The notes beneath the pieces are model-generated. The model was given only the letters and a program-made list of their open reading frames with translations, searched no databases and was not told where the DNA came from. From contig NC_090349.1 of assembly GCF_035084215.1 (NCBI RefSeq), forward strand, positions 9,858,001 through 9,922,000: 64,000 nucleotides of DNA, in the 5' to 3' direction. The stretch comes from Heptranchias perlo. Lineage: Eukaryota. Shown piece by piece: positions 30,960 to 60,700 of this stretch (the first letter of the stretch is position 1; each line of letters starts with the position of its first letter). A program made the translations under genes and the position numbers.

Positions 30960-33680
30960 TCATAGTAGGTACAACGCAGGAGGAGACCATTCGGCCCATC
31001 GTGCCTGTGCCGTCTCTTTGAAAGCTATCCAATTAGTCCCATTCCCCTGCTCTTCCCCCATAGCCCTGTATTTTTTCCCTTCAAGCATTTACCCAATTCC
31101 CTTTTGAGAGTTTATATTGAATCTGCCTCCACCACCCTTTCAGGCAGTGCATTCCAGATCATAACAACTCGCTGCATAAAAATATTTCCTCATGTTGCCT
31201 AGAATCATAGAATCAAAGAAAAGTGGTATTTGGCTCATCGAGTCTGCAACGACTCCATGCATGAGCAATCCAACTAGTCCCACTTTGCTGCCCTATCCCC
31301 GTAGCTTTGCACGTTTTTTTTTCATTTCAAGTACTTACCTAGTTCCCTTTTGAAGGCCATAATTGAATCTGCTCCACCACTCCCTCGGGCAATGCATTCC
31401 AGATCCCAACCTCATGTTTTTCCTCATGTGGCCTTTGGTTCTTTTGCCAATCACCTTAAATCTATGCCCTCTGGTTCTTGACCCTTCTGCCAATGGGAAC
31501 AGTTTCTCTCTATCCACTCTGTCTAGACCCTTCATGATTTTGAATACCTCTATCAAATCTCCTCTCAACCTTCTCTGTTCCAAGGAGAACAATCCCAGCT
31601 TCTCCTATCTATCCACGTAATTTTAGTCCCTCATCCCTGGAATCATTCCACTAAATCTCATCTGCACCCTCTCTAATGCCTTCACACCCTTCCTAAAGTG
31701 CGATGCCCAGAACTGGACACAATATTCCAGTTGTGGCCGAACCAGTGTTTTATAAAGGTTCATCATGACTTCCTTGCTTTTGTACTCTATGCCTCTATTT
31801 ATAAAGCCCAGGAACCCGTATGATTTTTTAACCACTTTCTCAACCTGCCCTGCCACCTTCAACGATTTGTGCACATATATCCCCAAATCTCTCTGTTTCT
31901 CTACCCATTATAGAATTGTGCCCTCTAGTTTATAATGCCTCTCCTCATTTTTCCTACCGAAATGCATCACCTCGCATTTTTCCACGTTAAACTTCATCTG
32001 CCACGTGTCTGCCCATGCCATCAGCCAGTCTATATCCTCTTGAAATCTATCACTACCCTCCTCACTGTTCACTATGCTTTCAAGTTTTGTGTCATCTGCA
32101 AATTTTGAAATGGTGCCCTGTACTACCAAGTACAAGTCATTAATATATACCAAGAAAAGCAGTGGTTCCAGCACAGACCCCTGGGGAAGACCACTGCACA
32201 CCTCCCTCCAGTCCAAAAAACAACCGTTCACCACTACTCTCTGTTTCCTGTCATTTAGCCAGTTATGTATGCATGTTGATATTGCCCCCTTTATTCCATG
32301 GACCACAATGTTGATAACAAGCCTACCATGTGGCACTTTATCAAACGCTTTTTGAAAACCCGTGTACACCATATCAACTACATTGCCCTCATCTACGCTC
32401 TCTGTTACCTCATCAAACAACTCTATCAAGGTGGTTAAACACGATTTGCCTTTAACAAATCCGTGTTGGCTTTCCCTAATGAATCCACATTCGTCCATGT
32501 GACGGTTAATTCTGTCCTGGGTTATCATTTCCAAATGTTTTGCCACCACCGAGGTTAAACTGACTGGCCTATAGTTGCTGGCATATAGTTTTTTGAATAA
32601 GGCTGTAACACTTGCAATTCTCCAGTGCTCTGGTACCACCCCTGGATCTTAGGATGTCTGGAAGATTATGGCCAGTACCTCTACAATTTCCCCCCTTACT
32701 TCCCTCAGGGTGCATCCCACCCGAACCAGGTGAGTTATCTATTTTAAGTACAGTTAGTCTTTCTAATACCTCTTCTTTCTCAATTTTTAGCCCATCCAGT
32801 ATCTTAGCTATATCTTCCTTTACCGAAACTCTGGCAGCATCTTCTTCCTTGGTAATTACCTATTTAGTACCTCCGCCATGCCCACTACCTCCATGAGTAG
32901 ATCTCCTTTATGGTCCCTAATCAGTCCCACTCCTCTTATTACCTGTTTACTGTTAACATGTCTGTAGAAGACTTTTGGATTCCCTTTTATGTTGCCCGCT
33001 AGTCTATTCTCATACTTTCTCTTTACCCCCCTTATTTCCTTTTTCACTTCCCCTCTGAACTTTCTTTATTTTCTTTGGTTGGCACTTGTTGACACTCTGG
33101 TTGGCACTTGAGCCTCTGGCTCTTTTACCGATCAACTTAAATCTGTGTCCTCTGGTTACTGAACCTTCTACCATTGGAAAAAGTTTCTTCCTATTTACTC
33201 CATCAAAACCATTTATGATCTTGAACACCTCTATCAAATCTCCCCTTAACCTTCCCTGTTCTAATGAGAACAACCCCAGCTTCTCGAATCTCTCCACATA
33301 ACTGAAGTCCCTCATCCCTGGTACCATTCTAGTAAATCTCCTCTGCACCCTCTCTAAGGCCATCCTTCCTAAAGTGTGGTGCCCAGAATTGAACACAATA
33401 CTCCAACTGAGGCCTAACTAGTGTTTTATAAAGGTTTAGCATAACTTCCTTGCTTTTAATAAAGCCCAGGATCCCATATGCTTTTTTAACAGCCTTCTCA
33501 ACTTGTCTTGCCACCTTCAAAGATTTGTGTCTGTGCACCTCCAGGTCTTTTTGTTCCCGTACCCCCTTTAAAATTGTACCATTTAGTTTATTTTGCCTCT
33601 CAAAATGCATCACTTCACACTTCTCTGCGTTAAATTTCATCAACCATGTGTCTGCCCATTTCACCAATCTGTCTATGTTT
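30960..33680 (-). mobile_element. Stack of nested/adjacent CR1 fragments (RT-containing copy about 31200-33090; further 3' fragments)
   Basis: NYRPVSLTSVV, QHGFVKGKSC, PQGSVL, FADD; interrupted by frameshifts. Confidence 0.9.
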
Positions 33681-39199: not shown

Positions 39200-40690
39200 C
39201 AAAAGGAACAGGCGTAGGCCATCCAGCCCCTCGAACTCAATTAGATCGCGGCTGCTTTGCACCTCAACTCCATCTACCCGTTTTTGTTCCATATGTCTTG
39301 ATACTCTTATCTAGCAAAAATCTATCATCTCATTCTTGAAAATTTCAACTGACCCAGCATCCACAGGCTTTGGGGGATCGAGTTGCAGATTTCAACTACC
39401 CTTTGTGTGAAAAAGTGCTTCCTGATTTCACTCCAAAAAGGCCTAGCTCTGATTTTAAGATTATGCCCTCTTCTTCTGGATTTCCTCAGGAGAGGAAATA
39501 GTTTCTCTGTGTCCACCCTATAGAACCCCTTAACCAATTTAAATGCTTCGATTAGATCACTCGTCAACCTTTAACACTCAAGGGAGTACAAACCACGCTT
39601 ATGCAACCTGTCCTCATAATTTAACCTTTTAAGTCCTGGCATAATTCTAGTGAATCTGTGCTGTACTCCTTCCAAGGCCAATATATCCTTCCTGAGGTGC
39701 GGTGCCCAAAACTGAATGCAGTACTCCAGATGAGGTTTGACCAAGGCTCTGTGCAACGGAAGCATTACTTCCTTACTTTTGAATTCCAATCCCCTTGTGG
39801 TAAAGGCCAACATTCCATTAGCCTTATTGATTACTTTGTGTACCTATACACTTTTTTTTAGTAATTTGTGTACACCGACACCCTTTGTTCATCCATAGCT
39901 CCTAGTCTCTCACCACTAAGAAAATATTCTAACTTGTCTTGCTCAGATTCAAAGTGGATGACCTCCCGCTTCCCCACATTGTACTCCATTTGCCATAATT
40001 TTGCCCATTCACTTACTCTATTTATATAACTTTTTTTGCCCATCCACACAACTTACTGTGCTTCCTAACTTAGTGTCATCTGCACACTGGTATATACAAC
40101 TCTCTATTCCTTCATCCAAGTTTTTAATGTATATGGTGAAAAGCTGAGGCCCCAGAACGGATCCCTGGGGAAAACCACTTGTCACATCCAGCCAATGAGA
40201 GAAGGAACCCTTTATCCCCACTCTCTGTGTCCTACCTCCTAACCAATTACCAACCCATATCTTCAAATAATGCCTCACTGTTCTGGACTCACCCACAAGT
40301 GGAATCAATTTCTCCTCGTCCATCCTATGGAACCTCTTCATAAATTGAAAGCCCTCTATCAAATCTCCTCAGTCTTCTATTTTCCAGAGAAAACTTTTCC
40401 TTTCATTTTTCCCGATTGTTCCATCCTCCCAATTCTGGTAACATCCTTGTAAATCTTTCCTGCATTTTCTCCAGTACTTCAATATCATTTTTGTACTACG
40501 GAGACCAGAACTGAGCACAGACCTCATAGTGTGGTCTAGCCTAGTTTCTATATAAATGTAACATTATTTCCTCGCTTTTGTATTTTATTCCGCTAGAAAT
40601 GCGCTCCACTACTTTGTTTGCACTTTTTATGTCCTTATCAACTCGTGGTGCCACTTTTAGCGATTTATGTATCTCTGTTACCAAATCCGC
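39200..40690 (-). mobile_element. CR1 fragments (at least two)
   Basis: FPQGSVLGP, ADDTKL, LEYCIQFW, FFTQRVV remnants. Confidence 0.85.
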
Positions 40691-42204: not shown

Positions 42205-42692
42205 CATTTCATAGAATCATAGATTCTTACAGCACAGAAGGAGGCCACTCGGCCCATTGTGCCTGTGACGCCTCTTTTAAAGATCCATCCAATTAATCCC
42301 ACTCCCTTGCTCTGTTCCCAAAGCACTGCAATTGTTTCCTTTTCAAGTATATATCCAATTCCCTTTTGAATGATGCTGTTGAATCTGCTTCCATCACCCT
42401 TTCAGGTAGTTCATTTCAGATCATACCAGCTGGCGGTGTAAAAAAATCCTCCTCACCTTCCTTGGTTCTTTTGTCAATTATCTTCAATCTGTGTCCTTTG
42501 GTTATCGACCTGCTTGCCAGTGGAAACATTTTCTACCTATCTATTCTATCAAAACTCTTCAAATTTTGAACACCTCTGTTATATCCCCCCTTAACCTTCT
42601 CTGCTCTAAGGAAAACAATCCCAGTTTCTCGACATAACTGAAATCCCTCATCCCTTGTACCATTCCAGTAAATCTCTGCGCCCTCTCCAAGG
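42205..42692 (-). mobile_element. CR1 3' fragment in the J-C intron
   Basis: LGLFSLEQRRLRGD plus HER1-type tail. Confidence 0.85.
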
Positions 42693-51506: not shown

Positions 51507-53243
51507 AACCGTTTTGTTGCCAGACAGTAACGGAAAAATCTGCTAACACAGAGCAATCCTCACTGTCTATTGGCTGCCCGTCTGTTTTAGTGTGCGGAAG
51601 AGGTGACGTCTAACGTCTTTGGCGCCACTTTGAGGCAGCCAACACGTCTTAAAGGGGAGGTGCACTCTGGCTGCAATCAGAGCTCAGGGAAACTTCACAA
51701 TAACGAGAAATGGCTACAACAGGTACAGATACAGCTCCCAGGTTCTCTGGTAGAGCTTTGGAGGGCCTGGTGCAGGTGTCAAATCCTGTATCCTGTGGGG
51801 TATGGGGGGATGGGGGCAAGGGAGGGGGAAGGGGAGAGAGAGTCTTTGACGCAATACCTCTTCCGCCGATGGGAAGAGGTTGATGAGGAAACCAATACAA
51901 GGATCTTAGCTCCAATGACATGGCTTTATTGCCAGAAAAGGTTCTATAACTTCATTAGAATTATCAATGATCAAAATCTTACCTTTCACCTCAATGATTC
52001 TCTCCTCACAGCTGCAGAAAAACCACTCCCAACACTACACTCCCCCGGTTCCTTCAATCCTTTACAATCACTGCATCACATTTCACTCCATCTCCTTCTC
52101 TTCTTACTCACACTCTGCACTTCCTAATCTCATCACTATTGCAACCCTCGCTTCCGAAAAGCCCACATATTAGACACAGCATCTGCACTATTCATTCATG
52201 AAAGACATATTCTCAAAGCAGCTCACAAAGCTCTCACAAACGCACTTCTTTCTAGTAGGAGAAACTCGTGCCAAACATGAGGCAGAAGGCAACGACCATG
52301 GGAGGCCAGGCCCGCCTCTACACCATTTCCCCACTCAAGAAAAATGTGCTGCCCTTCAACTGTTTAAGGTCAATTTAAAAGTTTAAATTTCTAAGTTTCT
52401 GTCAGGCTTCAGCAGAGAGCTGCTGTAGCAAGTTAATTGGTTAGCTAGATTCAATTGGTACTTGAAGGTGGGGCAGGCTTGACTCATCTGATTCTCAACT
52501 GTAGAAATACAGGGGCCTGTCAGTGCGGACAGCACGGTGTGAGGACAACACAGTGTGCTGAGAGTTCGGTAAGTGTGGGAGTTGAAGGGTTAATCTCTTT
52601 AAATCTAGTGCATATTGCTTCAACTGTTTAAGGTCAATTTAAAAGTTTAAATTTCTAAGTTTCTGTCAGGCTTCAGCAGAGAGCTGCTGTAGCAAGTTAA
52701 TTGGTTAGCTAGATTCAATTGGTACTTGAAGGTGGGGCAGGCTTGACTCATCTGAGTCTCAACTGTAGAAATACAGGGGCCTGTCAGTGCGGACAGCACG
52801 GTGTGAGGACAACACAGTGTGCTGAGAGTTCGGTAAGTGTGGGAGTTTGGTGAAGTGGGGGAAGGAGGTGCTGCTTTGCCTTGCTTTTCCTGCAGAGCGG
52901 TAGTGGACCTGAGAGTAGAAGACTGAGATTGTGGAATAAAAGCAGCAGCAGACCTGCACCAAGAGACAAATACTGTGCGACATCACAGGGACTTAACTCC
53001 TGGACCTCAGATAAATAAGAAGCAAAAAGTAATCCAAGTGGGACGTCACCAAGGAAGAGGTAAGTGATTGGCTGGTGAGTATTTTCCTGCTGAATTTGTC
53101 TAAGGTTAGAGTTTGTGGATTCTCTGGTCTCTGTTGTGTAGTGGGGGACTGCTGTTCAGCAAGGGCCCTTGAGTATACCTTTTTAATTGAAGTGAAATTG
53201 GTGGGATTCATTTAATTTGAATTAATTAGTTAAAGGGTAAGTC

Positions 53244-54188
53244 ATGTCAGGACAGTCCAGCCCCGTGTTATGCTCTTCCTGCTCTATGTGGGAAATCAGG
53301 GACCCTTCCGGTGTCCCTGACGACCATGTGTGCGGGAAATGTATCCAGCTGCAGCTACTGACAAACCGCATTGCGGCACTGGAGCTGCGGATGGATTCAT
53401 TATGGAGCATTCGCGATGCTGAGAACGTCGTGGATAGCACGTTTAGTGAGATGGTCACACCGCAGGTAAAGGTTGTACAGGCAGGAAGTAATTGGGTGAC
53501 CACCAGGCAGAGTAAGAAGAGCAGGCAGGCAGTGCAGGGGTCCCCTGTGGCCGTCCCCCTCTTAAACAAATATACCGCTTTGGATATTGTTGAGGGGGAT
53601 GACTTATCAGGGGAAGGCAGCAGCAGCCAACTTCCTGGCACCAGGGGTAGCTCTTCTGCACAGGCTGGGAGGAAAAAGAGTGGAAGAGCTATAGTGGTAG
53701 GGGATTCTATCGTAAGGGGAACAGACAGGCGTTTCTGTGGCCGTAAACGTGACTCCAGGATGGTTTGTTGCCTCCCTGGTGCCAGGGTCATGGATGTCAC
53801 TGAGCGGCTACAGGGCATTCTCAAGGGGGAGGGTGAGCAGGCAGAGGTCGTGGTCCACATTGGGACCAACGACATAGGTAGGAAGGGAGATGAGGTCCTG
53901 CATCAAGAATTTAGGGAGCTAGGTAGCAGATTAAAGAGCAGGACCTCAAAGGTTGTAATCTCTGGATTACTCCCAGTGCCACGGGCTAGTGAGTATAGAA
54001 ATAGGAGGATAGAACAGATGAATGCGTGGCTAAAGAGTTGGTGCAGGAGGGAGGGTTTCAGTTTCCTGGATCACTGGGCCTGCTTCTGGGGAAGGTGGGA
54101 CTTGTACAAGTCGGACGGGTTGCACCTGAACCAGAGCGGGACAAATATCCTTGCGGGGAGGTTTGCTAGCACTGTTGGGGGGGTTTAA
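53244..54188 (+). CDS. CR1 ORF1 (CxxC..CxxC zinc finger/coiled coil plus SGNH esterase)
   Basis: CSSC..CGKC; GDSI, PGA, HIGTND, DGLH blocks. Confidence 0.92.
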   Translation: MSGQSSPVLCSSCSMWEIRDPSGVPDDHVCGKCIQLQLLTNRIAALELRMDSLWSIRDAENVVDSTFSEMVTPQVKVVQAGSNWVTTRQSKKSRQAVQGSPVAVPLLNKYTALDIVEGDDLSGEGSSSQLPGTRGSSSAQAGRKKSGRAIVVGDSIVRGTDRRFCGRKRDSRMVCCLPGARVMDVTERLQGILKGEGEQAEVVVHIGTNDIGRKGDEVLHQEFRELGSRLKSRTSKVVISGLLPVPRASEYRNRRIEQMNAWLKSWCRREGFSFLDHWACFWGRWDLYKSDGLHLNQSGTNILAGRFASTVGGV

Positions 54189-57111
54189 ACTAACTTGGCA
54201 GGGGGATGGGATACAGAGTGGAGCTACAATAGGGGGTGATGTGCAGCCAAATATAGAGAAAAAAACAAGTCAGCTTGGAAGACAGGGCAAATATGTAAGG
54301 GCAAGGCTGGATGGCATCTATTTTAATGCAAGGAGTCTTGCGAATAAGGTGGATGAACTGAAGGTGTTGATAAACACATGGAAGTATGATATTGTTGCTG
54401 TCACAGAGACATGGTTGAGGGAGGGGCAAGACTGGCAGCTCAATATTCCGGGGTACAGAATCTTCAGGCGAGACAGAGGGGGAGGTATAAGAGGAGGGGG
54501 GGTCGCAATATTAATTAAAGAATCAATTACTGCCATAAGGAGGGATGATATATTAGCAGGTTCCTCTAATGAGGCCATATGGGTGGAGCTTAAAAACAAA
54601 AAGGGGGCAAGCACTTTGATGGGAGTGTACTATAGGCCCCCAAACAGTCAGGGGGAGATCGAGGAACAGATATGTAGGCAAATCTCAGAAAATTGTGCAA
54701 ATAATAGGGTAATAATAGTGGGGGATTTCAACTTCCCCAATATTAACTGGGATACTCAGAGTGTAAAAGGCTTAGAGGGTACAAAATTCTTAACGTGCAT
54801 CCAGGAGAGCTTTTTGAGCCAGCATGTAGAAAGTCCTACAAGAGAGGGGGCGGTACTGGACCTAATTCTAGGGAATGTGGCCGGCCAAGTGGAAGAAGTG
54901 CTAGTAGGTGAGCACTTTGGTGACAGTGACCATAATTCGGTGAGATTTAAGGTGGTCATGGAAAAGGACAGGGAGGGGCCGGAAATAAAGGTTCTAAATT
55001 GGGGGAAGGCCGATTTTAATAGGATAAGGCAGGATCTGGCCAAAATGGACTGGGATCAGCTGCTTGTAGGAAAATCCGCATCGGAGCAATGGGAGTCTTT
55101 CAGAAGGGAGATTGAGACCATACAATGGCAACATGTTCCCGTAAAGGTCAAGGGTGGTTCCAAGAACTCCAGGGAACCTTGGATGTCAGGGGATATACGA
55201 GAATGGATTAGGAAAAAAAGGAGGGCTTTTGGCAGATACAAAAGGCTAAAGACGGAGGAAGCCCTAGAGGAGTACAAAAAGTGCAGGGGGATACTTAAAA
55301 AAGAAATTAGGAGATCAAGGAGGGGCCATGAAATAACACTGGCGAGCAAAATAAAGGAAAATCCTAAGATGTTTTATAAGTATATTAAGGGTAAGAGGAT
55401 GACTAGGGAAAAAATAGGGCCCATTAGGGACAAAAATGGCAATCTGTGTGTGGAGCCGGCAGATGTAGGAGGGGTTCTAAATGAATTTTTTGCATCTGTT
55501 TTCACTATGGAGAAGGACGATGTAGACATAGAAATACGGCAGGGGGACTGTGATATACTCGAACATATTAACATCGAGCGGGAGGAGGTATTGGCGGTTT
55601 TAGTAGGCCTAAAAATGGATAAATCCCCAGGCCCGGACGAAATGTATCCCAGGCTACTGTGTGAGGCAAAGGAGGAGATTGCGGGGGCTCTGACACATAT
55701 ATTCAGAACCTCTCTGGCCACAGGGGATGTGCCAGAGGACTGGAGAACCGCTAATGTAATACCATTATTCAAGAAGGGGAGTAGGGAAAAACCGGGGAAC
55801 TACAGGCCAGTGAGCCTAACATCAGTGGTAGGAAAATTATTGGAAAAAATTCTGAAGGACAAAATTAGTCTCCACTTGGAGAAGCAAGGATTAATCAGGG
55901 ATAGTCAACATGGCTTTGTCAAGGGAAAATCATGTCTGACTAATTTGATTGAATTTTTTGAGGGGGTGACTAGGCGTGTGGATGAGGGTAACGCAGTGGA
56001 TGTGGTATACATGGATTTCAGTAAGGCCTTCGATAAAGTCCCCCACAGGAGACTGGTCAAGAAGGTACGAGCCCATGGAATCCAGGGTGCCTTGGCACTT
56101 TGGATACAAAACTGGCTTAGTGGCAGAAGGCAGAGGGTGATGGTCGAAGGTTGTTTTTGTGACTGGAAGCCTGTGGCCAGTGGGGTACCACAGGGATCGG
56201 TGCTGGGTCCCTTGCTGTTTGTGGTCTACATTAATGACTTGGATATGAATGTAAAAGGTATGATCAGTAAGTTCGCTGATGATACAAAGATTGGTAGGGT
56301 GGTAAATAGCGAGGAGGATAGCCTCAGTCTGCAGGACGATATAGATGGGTTGGTCAGATGGGCGGAACAGTGGCAAATGGAATTTAACCCGGAAAAGTGC
56401 GAGGTGATGCACTTTGGAGGGACTAACAAGGCAAGGGAATACACAATGAATGGGAGGACCCTAGGCAAGACAGAGGGTCAGAGGGATCTTGGTGTGCAAG
56501 TTCACAGATCCCTGAAGGCGGCGGAACAGGTAGATAAGGTGGTAAAGAAGGCATATGGGATACTTGCCTTTATTAGCCGAGGCATAGAATATAAGAGCAA
56601 GGAGGTTATGATGGAGCTGTATAAAACACTGGTTAGGCCACAGCTGGAGTACTGTGTGCAGTTCTGGTCGCCACACTACAGGAAGGATGTGATCGCTTTG
56701 GAGAGGGTGCAGAGGAGATTCACCAGGATGTTACCAGGGCTGGAGCGCTTCAGCTATGAAGAGAGACTGGGAAGATTGGGTTTGTTTTCCTTGGAGCAGA
56801 GGAGGCTGAGGGGGGACATGATTGAGGTGTACAAAATTATGAGGGGCACAGATAGGATGGATACTAAGGAGCTTTTTCCCTTCGTTGAGGGTTCTATAAC
56901 AAGGGGACATAGATTCAAGGTAAAAGGCGGGAGGTTTAGAGGGGATTTGAGAAAGAACTTTTTCACCCAGAGGGTGGTTGGAGTCTGGAACTCACTGCCT
57001 GAAAGGGTTGTGGAGGCAGGAACCCTCACAACATTCAAGAAGCATTTGGATGAGCACTTGAAATGCCATAGCATACAAGGCTACGGACCAAATGCTGGAA
57101 TATGGGATTAG
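54151..57111 (+). CDS. CR1 ORF2 (APE endonuclease plus reverse transcriptase); start undefined
   Basis: YFNARS, VTETW, GDFN, SDH; KSPGPD, NYRPVSL, DFSKAFD, PQGSVLGP, FADD; 986 codons open. Confidence 0.95.
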   Translation: MRGGLLALLGGFKLTWQGDGIQSGATIGGDVQPNIEKKTSQLGRQGKYVRARLDGIYFNARSLANKVDELKVLINTWKYDIVAVTETWLREGQDWQLNIPGYRIFRRDRGGGIRGGGVAILIKESITAIRRDDILAGSSNEAIWVELKNKKGASTLMGVYYRPPNSQGEIEEQICRQISENCANNRVIIVGDFNFPNINWDTQSVKGLEGTKFLTCIQESFLSQHVESPTREGAVLDLILGNVAGQVEEVLVGEHFGDSDHNSVRFKVVMEKDREGPEIKVLNWGKADFNRIRQDLAKMDWDQLLVGKSASEQWESFRREIETIQWQHVPVKVKGGSKNSREPWMSGDIREWIRKKRRAFGRYKRLKTEEALEEYKKCRGILKKEIRRSRRGHEITLASKIKENPKMFYKYIKGKRMTREKIGPIRDKNGNLCVEPADVGGVLNEFFASVFTMEKDDVDIEIRQGDCDILEHINIEREEVLAVLVGLKMDKSPGPDEMYPRLLCEAKEEIAGALTHIFRTSLATGDVPEDWRTANVIPLFKKGSREKPGNYRPVSLTSVVGKLLEKILKDKISLHLEKQGLIRDSQHGFVKGKSCLTNLIEFFEGVTRRVDEGNAVDVVYMDFSKAFDKVPHRRLVKKVRAHGIQGALALWIQNWLSGRRQRVMVEGCFCDWKPVASGVPQGSVLGPLLFVVYINDLDMNVKGMISKFADDTKIGRVVNSEEDSLSLQDDIDGLVRWAEQWQMEFNPEKCEVMHFGGTNKAREYTMNGRTLGKTEGQRDLGVQVHRSLKAAEQVDKVVKKAYGILAFISRGIEYKSKEVMMELYKTLVRPQLEYCVQFWSPHYRKDVIALERVQRRFTRMLPGLERFSYEERLGRLGLFSLEQRRLRGDMIEVYKIMRGTDRMDTKELFPFVEGSITRGHRFKVKGGRFRGDLRKNFFTQRVVGVWNSLPERVVEAGTLTTFKKHLDEHLKCHSIQGYGPNAGIWD

Positions 57112-58769
57112 AGTAGACAGGGCTGATGGCCGGCGCGGACACGATGGGCCGAAGGGCCTCTATCCGTGCTGTATGACTCTATGACTCTATGACTCTAAGG
57201 GCAGGGGGAAGTTATGTTCATGGCGAGTGGCAGTGCTGGAGGAGATGTTGTGCAGGATTTCTTCACCCCTTCTCCTCCTATTTCCTTCTCACTTCCAACT
57301 TACCCTGCACACATTGCATGGCAAACTGCAATTGCTTTCAGAAGCTTCTCATCTCTCTCTGCTCTCCCTTCACACTAAAAAGTGACCCTTGTCCCTCTCT
57401 TTCATTTCAGGTGCTGAAAATATTTTGACCCCAGTGCTACTTTAGGAAGAGCAGGCCAGTGTTCCTGAAGATGCAGTGTTCTCAATCTGACCACAAGCAC
57501 AGAGACTGGCACTCAACACACTTTAGAGAATCGATTAAAGTAAGAGACTTGAGGTGGTGAATCACCAGACACAAGTGTGCAGAAGCTAGGGCAGGGGGAT
57601 AGGACGCCACAGGTGCTAGCTCCATCAACATGACAGTGGGGAAAACTATGATGTAGCCTCTGTTGACAGCTCTGACAGCTCTCATAGCTTGGCTCTGGGG
57701 GCCGCTGTTGGCAGGGTCTTCTAGATCGTCACTTCACTGCTGCTCTCTGTCACGTACAGGTGTAATGGTGTGCCATGTCAGGAGAGAAAATCTTGGCTGA
57801 ATAGGAGAAGCACCTAAGGTCCTCTCTCAAGACAACAGCAAGCCTGCGCCCCTGCTACCTACTCTGCCAGTACTCTTGTCAGTGCGACACAGCCAGCTCG
57901 GCCAGATTGCCCCGGTCCATGCCGAAATGCTGCAGTCTGTTGCTGAGCCCTCAAGGCCCAGAGCTGCTTGATGGTACCAAACACAGCCATCTGAACTATC
58001 TTCAATGGGAGCTCAGTAGCATTCCACTTTGGAAAATGTAACCACTGAGGGCACACGTCGTAGCCACACGAGTAAAGGTGAACATGCACAGAACGCGGAC
58101 ACGAAGGGTGATTCTTAATTTTTCGTGTTAACTATTATACACATATGGAATAGATTTGTTGGAGGAATTTTTTTCTGGATTTGTTGTTGGTGTAATGAAG
58201 TGAGGGCAAAACACATCGGGCTTGACTGCAGGAAGGCAACCAGATGGTGGTAGTAAGGACGGTGGTGATAAGGATTGTGCGACTGTCGGTGTATTGGGTA
58301 TTTGGGGGGTGGGTGGTGGGGGGCTTGTGGCACACTTCTCATAGATCAGCTCTGTCTGTGCAAGGGTTCCCGACAGGAGTTGAGCCATGTCAGGAAGGGA
58401 TACTCCTTGTCACCCAGAAGCCAACCTGTGACATGACAGCATGGTTGGATTAAAGGCAGCACATAGGACTGCCTCATGATGGATGAATTATGACTGCTGT
58501 CTGAAACTGGGCACAGACCTGCATGATGGCCTGTGATCGCAAACAAGTTGGATATGGTACGATTTGCAGTGAAGTGAAAGCTGCTCCACAGCGACCCCAA
58601 TGGTGAGAGATGGGTATCTCTTTCAAGTGCACTCAAACGGCAGTGATTTTAGTCAAAACTGCTTGCTGTCCACGGGAAACGCAGCTAAACGAATAAAAAT
58701 CCAATCTAATACAGAAATTATCGGCGTATGTTGAGTTGGGAGGGACTAACTCTTTACAACTTGGAATTG

Positions 58770-59258: not shown

Positions 59259-59785
59259 GTGCTTGATTTTCAGGTGAAGGAGCAGGTGCGTTGGGGCGGG
59301 GAGGGGAACTCCGAAAATCGCTGAAATCCCGAGCGGATTCAGAGCCCTCAACCCGCCGACTTCTGGGTTCCCCAGTGACGCGTCCGGGTGCATGCACACC
59401 TCCCGAGTGCGGAAGTCCCAGCGGGATGACACTTTGCATAGTTTGTCAGCTAGTTGAAGCACTTGAAATACTTAATTGCCTCAACATTTTGGCAGAGCTG
59501 CGATTTTGAATGATCCTCAGCGTGTTTCCTGTGCTGTGGGAAACATTCCCTGTTGCAACAGACATGTTTCAGTCAGCACCCAGTGGGAGATGCAAATGCT
59601 TATTTGACAGTTGGGGAGAAAACGTCATTTATTGCAGCAGGGCACCCTGTCACTTCAGACAATGTTTTAGCTGCAAGACCTTTGTGTTTTCACTCAAAAT
59701 TCTTACTTTCCACCCAAAACTGTTCAAATATATTTAACTACTTTGCCGACTCCCACAAACTCACACCGTCAGGATCGGGGGTGCC

Positions 59786-60700
59786 ATGGCTGCATTCACT
59801 ATGACATCCGAGGACGAGCAACATTACCAGCCTCGCCAGGCACGACGTCCATCTCCACCAAATGGAGCTCCACAACACAGTGCTGCACCACAGGCACCTG
59901 TACAAGAGCAGAGAGGGCAACAACAAAGAGACCAACGTCGTCAGAGGCACTACCCTCGCCACAGGGTCTACAGACTGAGGGTCAGCTTCCTGGACCTCTC
60001 TGAGGTGCGGTGCATACGGAGGTTCAGAGTTAGTCACCAGGTAGTCGCAGACATGTGCAACCTCCTTCATGTCACGCTGCTCCCGGCTGTGCCGAGCACC
60101 ATCGCCTTACCTGTCGCTGTCAAAGTCACCACTGCTCTCAACTTCTTCACCTCCGGATCATTCCAGAGTGCCACAGCGGACATCACCGGGGTCTCTCAGT
60201 TTTGTGCACACAAGTGCATAAGGCAGGTCACCAAAGGCTTGTTACGACCTCAGCCAGATGGAGAGGGCAGTGGGATACCACGCTGTGGCTGGCTTCCCAC
60301 GGGTGCAGGGTGCAATCGATTGCACCCATATAGCAATACGAGCACCTCCACACGAGCCAGGACTGTTCATCAACAGGAAGGGCTATCACTCCATCAACAC
60401 TCAACTGATTTATGGCCACCACAAAAGATTCCTTCACATGTGCGCCAGATTCCCTGGCAGCTGCCACGATTCCTTCATCCTCGCATTATAGTCATGTTTT
60501 GTGCCCTGCACAACATGGCACATCAGAGAGTGGTGCCGCTTGAGGAGGCCCCATCCACTTCTGCCACCCACATTGAGGAGGAGGAGGAGTAGGAGGAGGA
60601 GCAGGAGCAACCCATGGGCAGAGCAGTGGCTCACCTGGCTGCGTGAGAGGCCAGGGAGTCACTGATATGTGAACAGTTCTCCAAACATCAGACAGTGTGA
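59786..60700 (+). pseudogene. HARBI1-like Harbinger transposase, frameshifted and internally deleted
   Basis: ALNFFTSGSFQ..G.SQ; GAIDCTHI, NRKG.HSIN.Q, PGSCHDSFIL; jumps directly to CALHN, so the GD.GY and catalytic E segment is missing. Confidence 0.88.

Follow-up and report, generated by a model that had tools for sequence, protein, structure and literature searches.

A putative programmed -1 frameshift site between ORF1 and ORF2 of a CR1 retrotransposon in Heptranchias perlo

How the second open reading frame (ORF2) of LINE retrotransposons is translated has been called an open question (PMC3894237; PMC5009743). A CR1 copy in Heptranchias perlo raises this question directly, as the frame for its endonuclease and reverse transcriptase (RT) lacks a usable start codon. 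In many vertebrates CR1 is the principal type of LINE, and it makes up 11.8% of the chicken genome (PMC11835228). The copy lies on the forward strand of a 64 kb stretch of contig NC_090349.1 (the window), to which all coordinates refer.

The element and its junction

ORF1, as written in the assembly, extends from 53244 to 54188 (314 aa) and encodes a zinc finger of the form Cys-x2-Cys...Cys-x2-Cys, a leucine-rich stretch, and an SGNH esterase (PF13472, E 4.9e-16, aa 152–299; match to 4c1b_A, E 1.3e-28). ORF2, counted from the proposed shift site (54184–57111), comprises a linker of 45 codons without methionine, an APE endonuclease (about 54322–54933; PF03372, E 4.8e-14), and an RT (about 55780–56457; PF00078, E 8.6e-35). 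A 264-nt unit tandemly repeated upstream (52354–52847, 1.9 copies, 99% alike) is likely part of the 5' UTR of the element. An 8-nt repeat closes the 3' end of vertebrate CR1, and that of this copy consists of short tandem repeats, (TATGACTC) x3.2 at 57172–57197, rather than poly(A). In a search for target-site duplications, the best match was a hardly compelling run of nine purines, present at 51823 and again at 57203.

The element is a CR1 LINE whose ORF2 order (endonuclease followed by RT) and ORF1 composition (zinc finger/leucine zipper plus esterase) fit subgroup 7, with a type IV ORF1. This subgroup is described as carrying a type IVB ORF1 with the same zinc finger/leucine zipper and esterase, and it shares with the present copy the domain order of ORF1 and ORF2 and the short tandem 3' tail (PMC4120745, available text). 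The same text reports type IVB ORF1 only from vertebrates, whereas related ORF1s with a like end reach well-diverged clades here; it does not address the translation of ORF2, and no junction motif is given in three supplements of that paper.

The junction reads as the preliminary description had it, with seven G (54177–54183), the heptamer TTTAAAC (54184–54190), and TAA (54191–54193). As written, ORF1 ends in ...TVGGV* at a TAA lying within the heptamer, and the ORF2 frame, open over 54130–57111, is indeed +1 relative to it. The first in-frame ATG of ORF2 (54619–54621, residue 164 of the open frame) falls within the endonuclease domain, past the motifs YFNARS (54319) and VTETW (E at 54406), also in agreement with that description, and the five ATGs within 54100–54340 all belong to the third frame. 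The heptamer alone is common, occurring eight times on the + strand and 10 times on the - strand of the window; the features that exceed chance are its position and phase at the ORF1 terminus, together with its conservation.

In the window copy as written the heptamer is out of phase with ORF1, while in sister copies and relatives it is in phase. Among the sequencing runs listed as carrying the sequence, none is recorded as RNA. Contigs of four runs were compared with the window, and in each run an additional G is listed behind 54176 (43, 2, 1, and 57 contigs). Each of the five junction-spanning contig pieces listed is one letter longer than the window, with eight letters in the G run, and two of them are nearly identical to it (no substitutions in 227 nt, and three in 687 nt). 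Only 27% (X1) and 15% (X14) of the depth at 54176 is listed with the extra G, the remainder including contigs that end or are clipped within the G run, with 96 loose ends in each of these runs that end in the extra G. With this base, ORF1 of the sister copies ends in Leu-Asn-stop and ORF2 lies at -1, so that both consequences foreseen for one more letter in the run hold; ORF1 as written is two residues short (GGV*) because one base is missing. The shorter run in the window is somewhat better regarded as a homopolymer error of the assembly, with a real deletion in this copy as a serious contender.

Conservation of the ORF1 end

A search of metagenomes yielded 61 loci, of which the 13 covering the ORF1 end were used; 11 end before it, two have no profile match, about nine are LINE-like but lack the heptamer or are ambiguous, and the rest resemble bacterial esterases. 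Together with the window, the 13 loci form five groups with at most 53% nucleotide identity between groups. TTTAAAC is found in 10 of them and GTTAAAC in one, the other two showing a one-letter change; a G_UU(A) site is the variant of equine arteritis virus (PMC5009743). A stop codon directly follows the heptamer in 10/13 loci, and the codons TTA and AAC, as well as the T preceding them, are each present in 12/13. In the longer elements 3–39% of Leu codons are TTA, and multiplying the frequencies of TTA and AAC over one member from each group gives about 1e-6. The heptamer is thus conserved, as had been proposed, and far beyond the element's own family, as judged from 11/13 related loci with T/G-TTA-AAC and from the ORF1 protein ends described below.

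The -1 frame is closed one to three codons upstream of the heptamer in 8/13 loci. From the heptamer onwards, the window and seven of the 13 loci keep it open as far as the endonuclease motif, through linkers of 38–90 codons; three of the remaining loci are too short and three are interrupted. No methionine occurs in the linker of the window, L002, L003, or L020, while the linkers of L001, L005, L008, and L011 contain an AUG, so that reinitiation is possible there. The claim of an ORF2 without AUG therefore stands for the window element and three of the seven loci open to the endonuclease, but not for the other four. Several LINEs with an esterase ORF1 (L007 and L016/L017/L023) lack the heptamer.

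In other searches for related loci, scans of single proteins, viruses, and plasmids gave no matches, and three matches in a genome scan were bacterial esterases. A search with the ORF2 N-terminus returned nine proteins, none of them covering the junction, and a search for longer protein forms revealed no clear natural family with a single ORF. Two ray gene models (P0132 and P0040) read through FKL in one frame; they are probably mutated copies and were left out as functional support.

At the protein level, 97 of 120 listed ORF1 homologues reach the C-terminus, and 86 of these end in Leu-Asn, at a common projected position in 82 of the 86 and after variable residues; among the hosts named are sharks, rays, a bony fish, frogs, turtles, and lizards. 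Among cluster representatives, 116 of 150 reach the C-terminus and 77 of these end in Asn, with LN in 59, GN in 10, and KN in two. These three endings make up 71/116 termini, compared to 0.9% of 36,000 internal dipeptides, and the other 45 representatives, whole clades among them, end otherwise. Gln precedes GN in 9/10 cases and LN in 0/59, and the three endings are intermixed in one clade of the phylogenetic trees, which were built for ORF1 only.

The Gly-Asn and Lys-Asn ends of this more distant clade, known from protein, would fit the heptamers G_GGA_AAC and A_AAA_AAC, which like U_UUA_AAC belong to the four heptamers named as most prone to shifting (PMC5009743). Scanning DNA for the G_GGA_AAC motif gave eight matches, all of them non-LINE, and no codons for GN or KN ends were found by motif, viral, and genome scans. 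Regarding the T before TTA, residues K/E/Q/M/W occupy position -3 in 3/86 homologues against 43/86 at position -4, a test that is weak by itself because positions -6, -7, and -9 are equally low.

A frameshift model and its relation to known systems

Since ORF2 has no usable start codon and lies at -1 in the sister copies, the RT is likely reached by a slip of one base backwards. ORF2 is thus probably produced, with good confidence, as an ORF1-ORF2 fusion through programmed -1 ribosomal frameshifting at the conserved U_UUA_AAC and stop. According to this model, most ribosomes would read Leu-Asn and then the stop, giving the ORF1 protein (ORF1p), while a minority would pause with UUA in the P site and AAC in the A site. 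Both tRNAs would then shift their pairing to UUU and AAA, with translation resuming at 54190 through the variable linker into the endonuclease and RT. ORF1p would thereby be made in large excess over ORF2p, as is the case in gag-pol systems.

The pause itself would likely stem from a GGGGG run and/or the adjacent stop, because no shared RNA structure was found. The preliminary description had pointed to a stem between TTGGC (54195–54199) and GCCAA (54246–54250); both stretches are present, but the fold (-9.4 kcal/mol, z -0.19) is no better than shuffled sequences, 74/200 of which fold as well, and related loci do not share it, so the stem is unsupported as a functional structure. Local folds after the heptamer of the related loci range from z -2.3 to +1.5 without a shared stem, and in a simple scan for H-type pseudoknots only one of 13 beats all shuffles, none being shared. 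No long-range partner for the G run is shared among the elements examined, and Rfam gave no match near threshold.

What does recur is the G5 run itself (54201–54205 in the window), whose first letter stands at +11 from the heptamer in 10/14 sequences, compared to a background of at most about five GGGGG per kb in longer stretches. This run may plausibly act as a linear signal behind the pause, binding a protein or contacting the ribosome, a tentative proposal within the frameshift model. A bolder and rather doubtful extension would have a structure-free, protein-triggered -1 shift as the sole route to ORF2 in a large and old CR1 branch, with either a G-tract protein of the host or the zinc-finger ORF1p binding to the G5; in the latter case, ORF2 output would depend on the ORF1p level. 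A G-quadruplex (the G4Hunter score of the window is 1.48) is not a general stimulator, because L002 and L008 each contain just one run of G.

The -1 shifts of retroviral gag-pol and coronavirus ORF1a/1b (U_UUA_AAC, found in IBV; PMC5009743) share with this junction the same heptamer, in phase where the upstream ORF ends, and a polymerase ORF downstream in the -1 frame, where the shift likely sets the ratio of structural protein to enzyme. However, unlike these systems, no stem-loop or pseudoknot was detected 5–9 nt downstream in CR1 by folding, pseudoknot scan, and Rfam, and the linear G5 at +11 stands in its place. As the LINE has no protease, the fusion would also remain joined unless the host cuts it. 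A further likeness is offered by the arterivirus PRRSV, where nsp1beta and a poly(C)-binding protein act on CCCANCUCC, a motif bound 11 nt 3' of the shift site (PMC5009743). Both hold a short linear, homopolymer-rich motif from +11, within the arterivirus-type spacing of 11–15 nt, and no structured stimulator. On the other hand, the CR1 motif is G-rich instead of C-rich and known from sequence, and the CR1 site is a classical -1 heptamer, whereas that of PRRSV is a -2 site.

A -1 shift in a LINE is already in print, as TRE5-A and TRE3-A of Dictyostelium, likewise APE-type non-LTR elements, are stated to need one for ORF2 (PMC5911963, available text). Their clade and ORF1 differ from those of CR1. 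Outside Repbase and the early CR1 papers on turtle (1997) and chicken (1997/2001), full-text literature searches returned no report of frameshifting in CR1. A defined signal of 25 nt makes the question of LINE ORF2 translation directly testable. If the model is true, the annotation of CR1 ORF2 and of 'intact' copies changes, since ORF finders that start at Met cut the endonuclease; the ORF1 esterase may form part of the active enzyme; and the junction offers a natural frameshift stimulator that is apparently a sequence and not a structure. The protein-triggered reading would further imply trans-activated frameshifting outside viruses, in a class of elements that forms more than one tenth of the chicken genome.

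Other routes to ORF2

The alternative that survives best, albeit improbable, is that ORF2 is made separately by termination-reinitiation or AUG-independent initiation after the ORF1 stop, with heptamer, stop, and G run as the reinitiation signal. L1 and SART1 use ORF1-dependent reinitiation for ORF2 (PMC2881922; PMC3894237; PMC5009743), and, like CR1, they have a bicistronic RNA, with ORF2 output tied to ORF1 translation (PMC2881922; PMC3894237). The stop adjoining the site and the linker AUG of four of the seven related loci would agree with this route, as would near-cognate codons in the window's linker (ATA at 54211 and 54229, GTG at 54241). However, these codons occupy no conserved place, and the window, L002, L003, and L020 offer no in-frame AUG. 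SART1 relies on an overlapping UAAUG stop-start, absent from the junction of the window and the related loci, and L1 on an inter-ORF spacer with an AUG, whereas the ORFs overlap here at a slippery site. Reinitiation also leaves unexplained both the exact -1 phase of ORF2 at the heptamer over linkers of 38–90 codons and the switch among three known slippery heptamers, the GN and KN forms being taken from protein.

Slippage of a single tRNA at termination, in which tRNA-Asn would slip from AAC to AAA in the P site with the stop in the A site, is distinctly unlikely. It would do without RNA structure and would account for the most constant features, the Asn and the adjacent stop, but it does not require the first four letters of the heptamer, which are nevertheless conserved as T_TTA and apparently covary to G_GGA and A_AAA.

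Very little favours the view that Leu-Asn is kept for the function of the ORF1 protein and the G run for Gly, with ORF2 expressed otherwise, for instance by splicing or from an RNA with an internal start. A C-terminal motif, if exposed, could serve to bind a partner; however, the codons are fixed at the ORF1 end though rare elsewhere in the elements, and the penultimate residues L, G, and K are chemically unlike. As for splicing, the window resembles a branch point plus AG (CTAAC...CAG/G), but a pyrimidine tract is lacking, L001, L018, and L020 have no AG ahead of the G run, and a contig runs straight across the junction in a run presumed, by guess, to be RNA.

Finally, a junction with seven real G, where ribosomes would reach ORF2 by shifting +1 as ORF1 ends in GTT-TAA, would suit the window's own letters and ORFs otherwise intact over 3.9 kb, but is scarcely credible against the eight letters of near-identical copies and homologues that end two residues later, in LN.

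Junction between ORF1 and ORF2

In the CR1 element, ORF1 encodes a zinc finger with four cysteines and an SGNH esterase, and the ORF2 that follows encodes an APE endonuclease and a reverse transcriptase; for ORF1, the best relative with a solved structure is 4c1b_A (E 1.3e-28). Judged on these domains and on its 3' end, (TATGACTC)3.2, the element agrees with the definition of CR1 subgroup 7 in PMC4120745, its ORF1 being of type IVB. The nearest named ORF1 proteins among the homologues listed belong to sharks and rays (71% for Pristiophorus). The copy is young, since both ORFs are otherwise uninterrupted.

As had been described from the sequence alone, a run of seven G (54177–54183, +) is followed by the heptamer TTTAAAC (54184–54190, +) and by TAA (54191–54193, +). 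ORF1 as written (53244–54188, +) terminates on a TAA within the heptamer, and the open frame of ORF2 (54130–57111, +) lies at +1 relative to it, with its first ATG at 54619, both as previously stated; this ATG is about 100 codons beyond the first endonuclease motif. TTTAAAC is per se common, with 18 occurrences in total over the two strands of the window.

With eight letters in the G run, ORF1 ends in Gly-Leu-Asn-stop and ORF2 is placed at -1, as the preliminary description proposed. When contigs from four public runs (three samples) were aligned to 53240–54640, an extra G behind 54176 was found in all four (43, 2, 1, and 57 contigs), and the five junction-spanning pieces among the 32 listed of about 52,800 all exceed the window by one letter. 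Two of them are near-identical to it (no substitutions in 227 nt and three in 687 nt), and their depths agree with those of the inserted G. The extra G holds only 27% and 15% of the depth in the two deep runs; contigs ending or clipped at the G run make up much of the remainder, with 96 loose ends per deep run bearing one more G, and spanning contigs with seven G may account for some of it. The seven G of the window may stem either from misassembly or from genuine loss of a base.

Conservation of the heptamer

At the protein level, 86 of the 97 ORF1 homologues aligning to the C-terminal region (from 120 listed of 159 found) end in Leu-Asn (LN). In 82 cases the projected position is identical and lies two residues past the end of ORF1 in the window. 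The residues ahead of LN are freely variable. Named hosts include sharks, rays, Paramormyrops, frogs, turtles, and lizards. Two CR1 proteins, P0009 and P0123 (ORF1 and ORF2), are recorded as bacterial (Pseudomonas aeruginosa, Carnobacterium), on contigs of 3–4 kb, and probably reflect contamination by host DNA. In the Hypanus sabinus gene models P0132 and P0040, ORF1 continues via FKL into ORF2 in a single frame; P0132 bears the name of a host enzyme isoform.

A profile scan of metagenome contigs yielded at least 61 loci, 13 of which cover a CR1-type ORF1 end. Plain translation of ORF1 terminates at the heptamer site in seven (L001, L002, L003, L006, L010, L011, and L018), and in the remaining six the heptamer was assigned to the best-matching site close to where ORF1 is projected to end. 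The expected conservation was borne out, with TTTAAAC in 10 of the 13, GTTAAAC in one, and a single change in two; together with the window, these loci form five groups, with members of different groups at most 53% alike. The -1 frame is closed 1–3 codons 5' of the heptamer in eight of the 13, so that ORF2 is unable to start upstream, and in the window and seven loci it stays open up to the endonuclease motif (38–90 codons), the other six being too short (three) or interrupted (three).

When 1.84 billion representatives were searched with a profile and the best 150 examined (18 already known), 116 proteins reached the C-terminus: 59 end in LN, 10 in GN, two in KN, and 45 otherwise. The dipeptides encodable by an X_XXA_AAC heptamer (LN, GN, KN, and PN) make up 71 of these 116 termini, versus 0.9% of internal dipeptides. 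The codons for Gln end in A or G, and this residue directly precedes GN in nine of 10 cases and LN in none of 59. The GN proteins, one LN, and one KN fall into one clade (FastTree support 0.96, tree built without the terminal residues), and other clades lack the motif altogether. Being related (35–51% to the first one), the GN proteins do not constitute ten independent cases. Sequence searches found no DNA for the GN or KN proteins; from their termini, this QGN/SGN/KN clade (P0181, P0190, P0191, P0194, P0198, P0207, P0211, P0234, P0250, P0260, P0206, and P0264) is predicted to use G_GGA_AAC or A_AAA_AAC, an apparent switching among three strong heptamers.

Other LINEs with an esterase ORF1 from the same scan, forming two lineages on separate long branches (L016/L017/L023 and L007), lack the heptamer, which shows that the signal does not simply come with an esterase ORF1. 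Their ORF2 lies in frame 0 after a single stop (L017:1589, L007:1827), with an open linker of about 40–80 codons past it and a Met preceding the endonuclease, and stop readthrough or reinitiation are candidate mechanisms.

Proposed mechanism and sequences 3' of the heptamer

The junction feature is real, and its earlier reading is correct apart from the stem. Ribosomes would slip -1 in tandem on U_UUA_AAC, producing an ORF1–ORF2 fusion as a minority product, which we regard as likely. Reinitiation on ORF2 in the fashion of L1/SART1 is improbable; the open -1 linker is free of Met in the window, L002, L003, and L020, and holds at least one in L001, L005, L008, and L011. Less probable still is the slip of a single tRNA at the stop codon, which immediately follows the heptamer in 10 of the 13 loci. 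A motif conserved in the protein, with ORF2 made from a spliced or internal RNA, is very unlikely: calculated from the codon usage of the respective elements for one member per group, TTA together with AAC would arise by chance with a probability of about 1e-6, so the constraint acts on nucleotides. A +1 shift on the junction as written can practically be dismissed.

The proposed TTGGC/GCCAA stem did not hold, as it is at chance level in folding and its 5' arm is altered in a relative from sequencing run X10. Folds of 60–130 nt gave z from -2.3 to +1.5, and a pseudoknot, also suggested for checking, fared no better, a simple scan beating all shuffles in only one of 13 sequences. No long-range pairing partner recurred among the sequences compared, and no Rfam match came near threshold. 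In 10 of 14 sequences, a GGGGG run (54201–54205 in the window) begins 11 nt 3' of the heptamer, against a background of 0–5 such runs per kb (stretches over 400 nt); it lies at +8 in L001, reads GGGAGG in L018, is lost in the decayed L027, and is cut off in L019. It spans synonymous positions in the -1 frame, where taking one member per group the Gly codon reads GGG in five groups, an outcome with a chance of about 0.004; in L018 it is GGA. A four-tract quadruplex, possible in the window and not in L002 or L008, was rejected as a general element.

According to PMC5009743, structured stimulators lie 5–9 nt from the shift site and the protein-dependent ones of arteriviruses and cardioviruses 11–14 nt. 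For the PRRSV motif the distance is 11 nt, a spacing like that of the G run. This parallel, drawn by analogy, is offered as a lead only. Broad conservation, the apparent switching among three heptamers, and a structure-free G run would together make frameshifting a strong answer, and one that is cheap to test, to the open question of how ORF2 of LINEs is translated.

Precedents and surroundings of the element

Frameshifting by -1 has precedent among LINEs, since according to PMC5911963 the elements TRE5-A and TRE3-A 'require a -1 frameshift'; for Paramecium LINEs, PMC5405496 proposes a +1 shift or readthrough. In the accessible text, 'frameshift' is absent from PMC3894237 and PMC2881922, CR1 is unmentioned in PMC5009743, and no report of a CR1 frameshift was found within literature that covered few subscription papers (including PMC3708506, PMC1965478, PMC5006619, PMC4255032, PMC11835228, and PMC4120745). 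The overlap of the ORFs may already have been noted elsewhere, for instance in the turtle CR1 paper of 1997 or in Repbase.

Upstream of ORF1, a 264-nt tandem unit (52354–52847; 1.9 copies at 99%) may consist of monomers of the 5' UTR or have arisen by recent duplication. Four older 3' fragments akin to the element (67–72% identity) lie at 2347–2770, 31453–33676, 39632–40591, and 42341–42690, none of them covering the junction. A 284-codon open frame (59738–60592, +) gave no match in a Pfam search; parts of it may resemble a Harbinger/PIF transposase.
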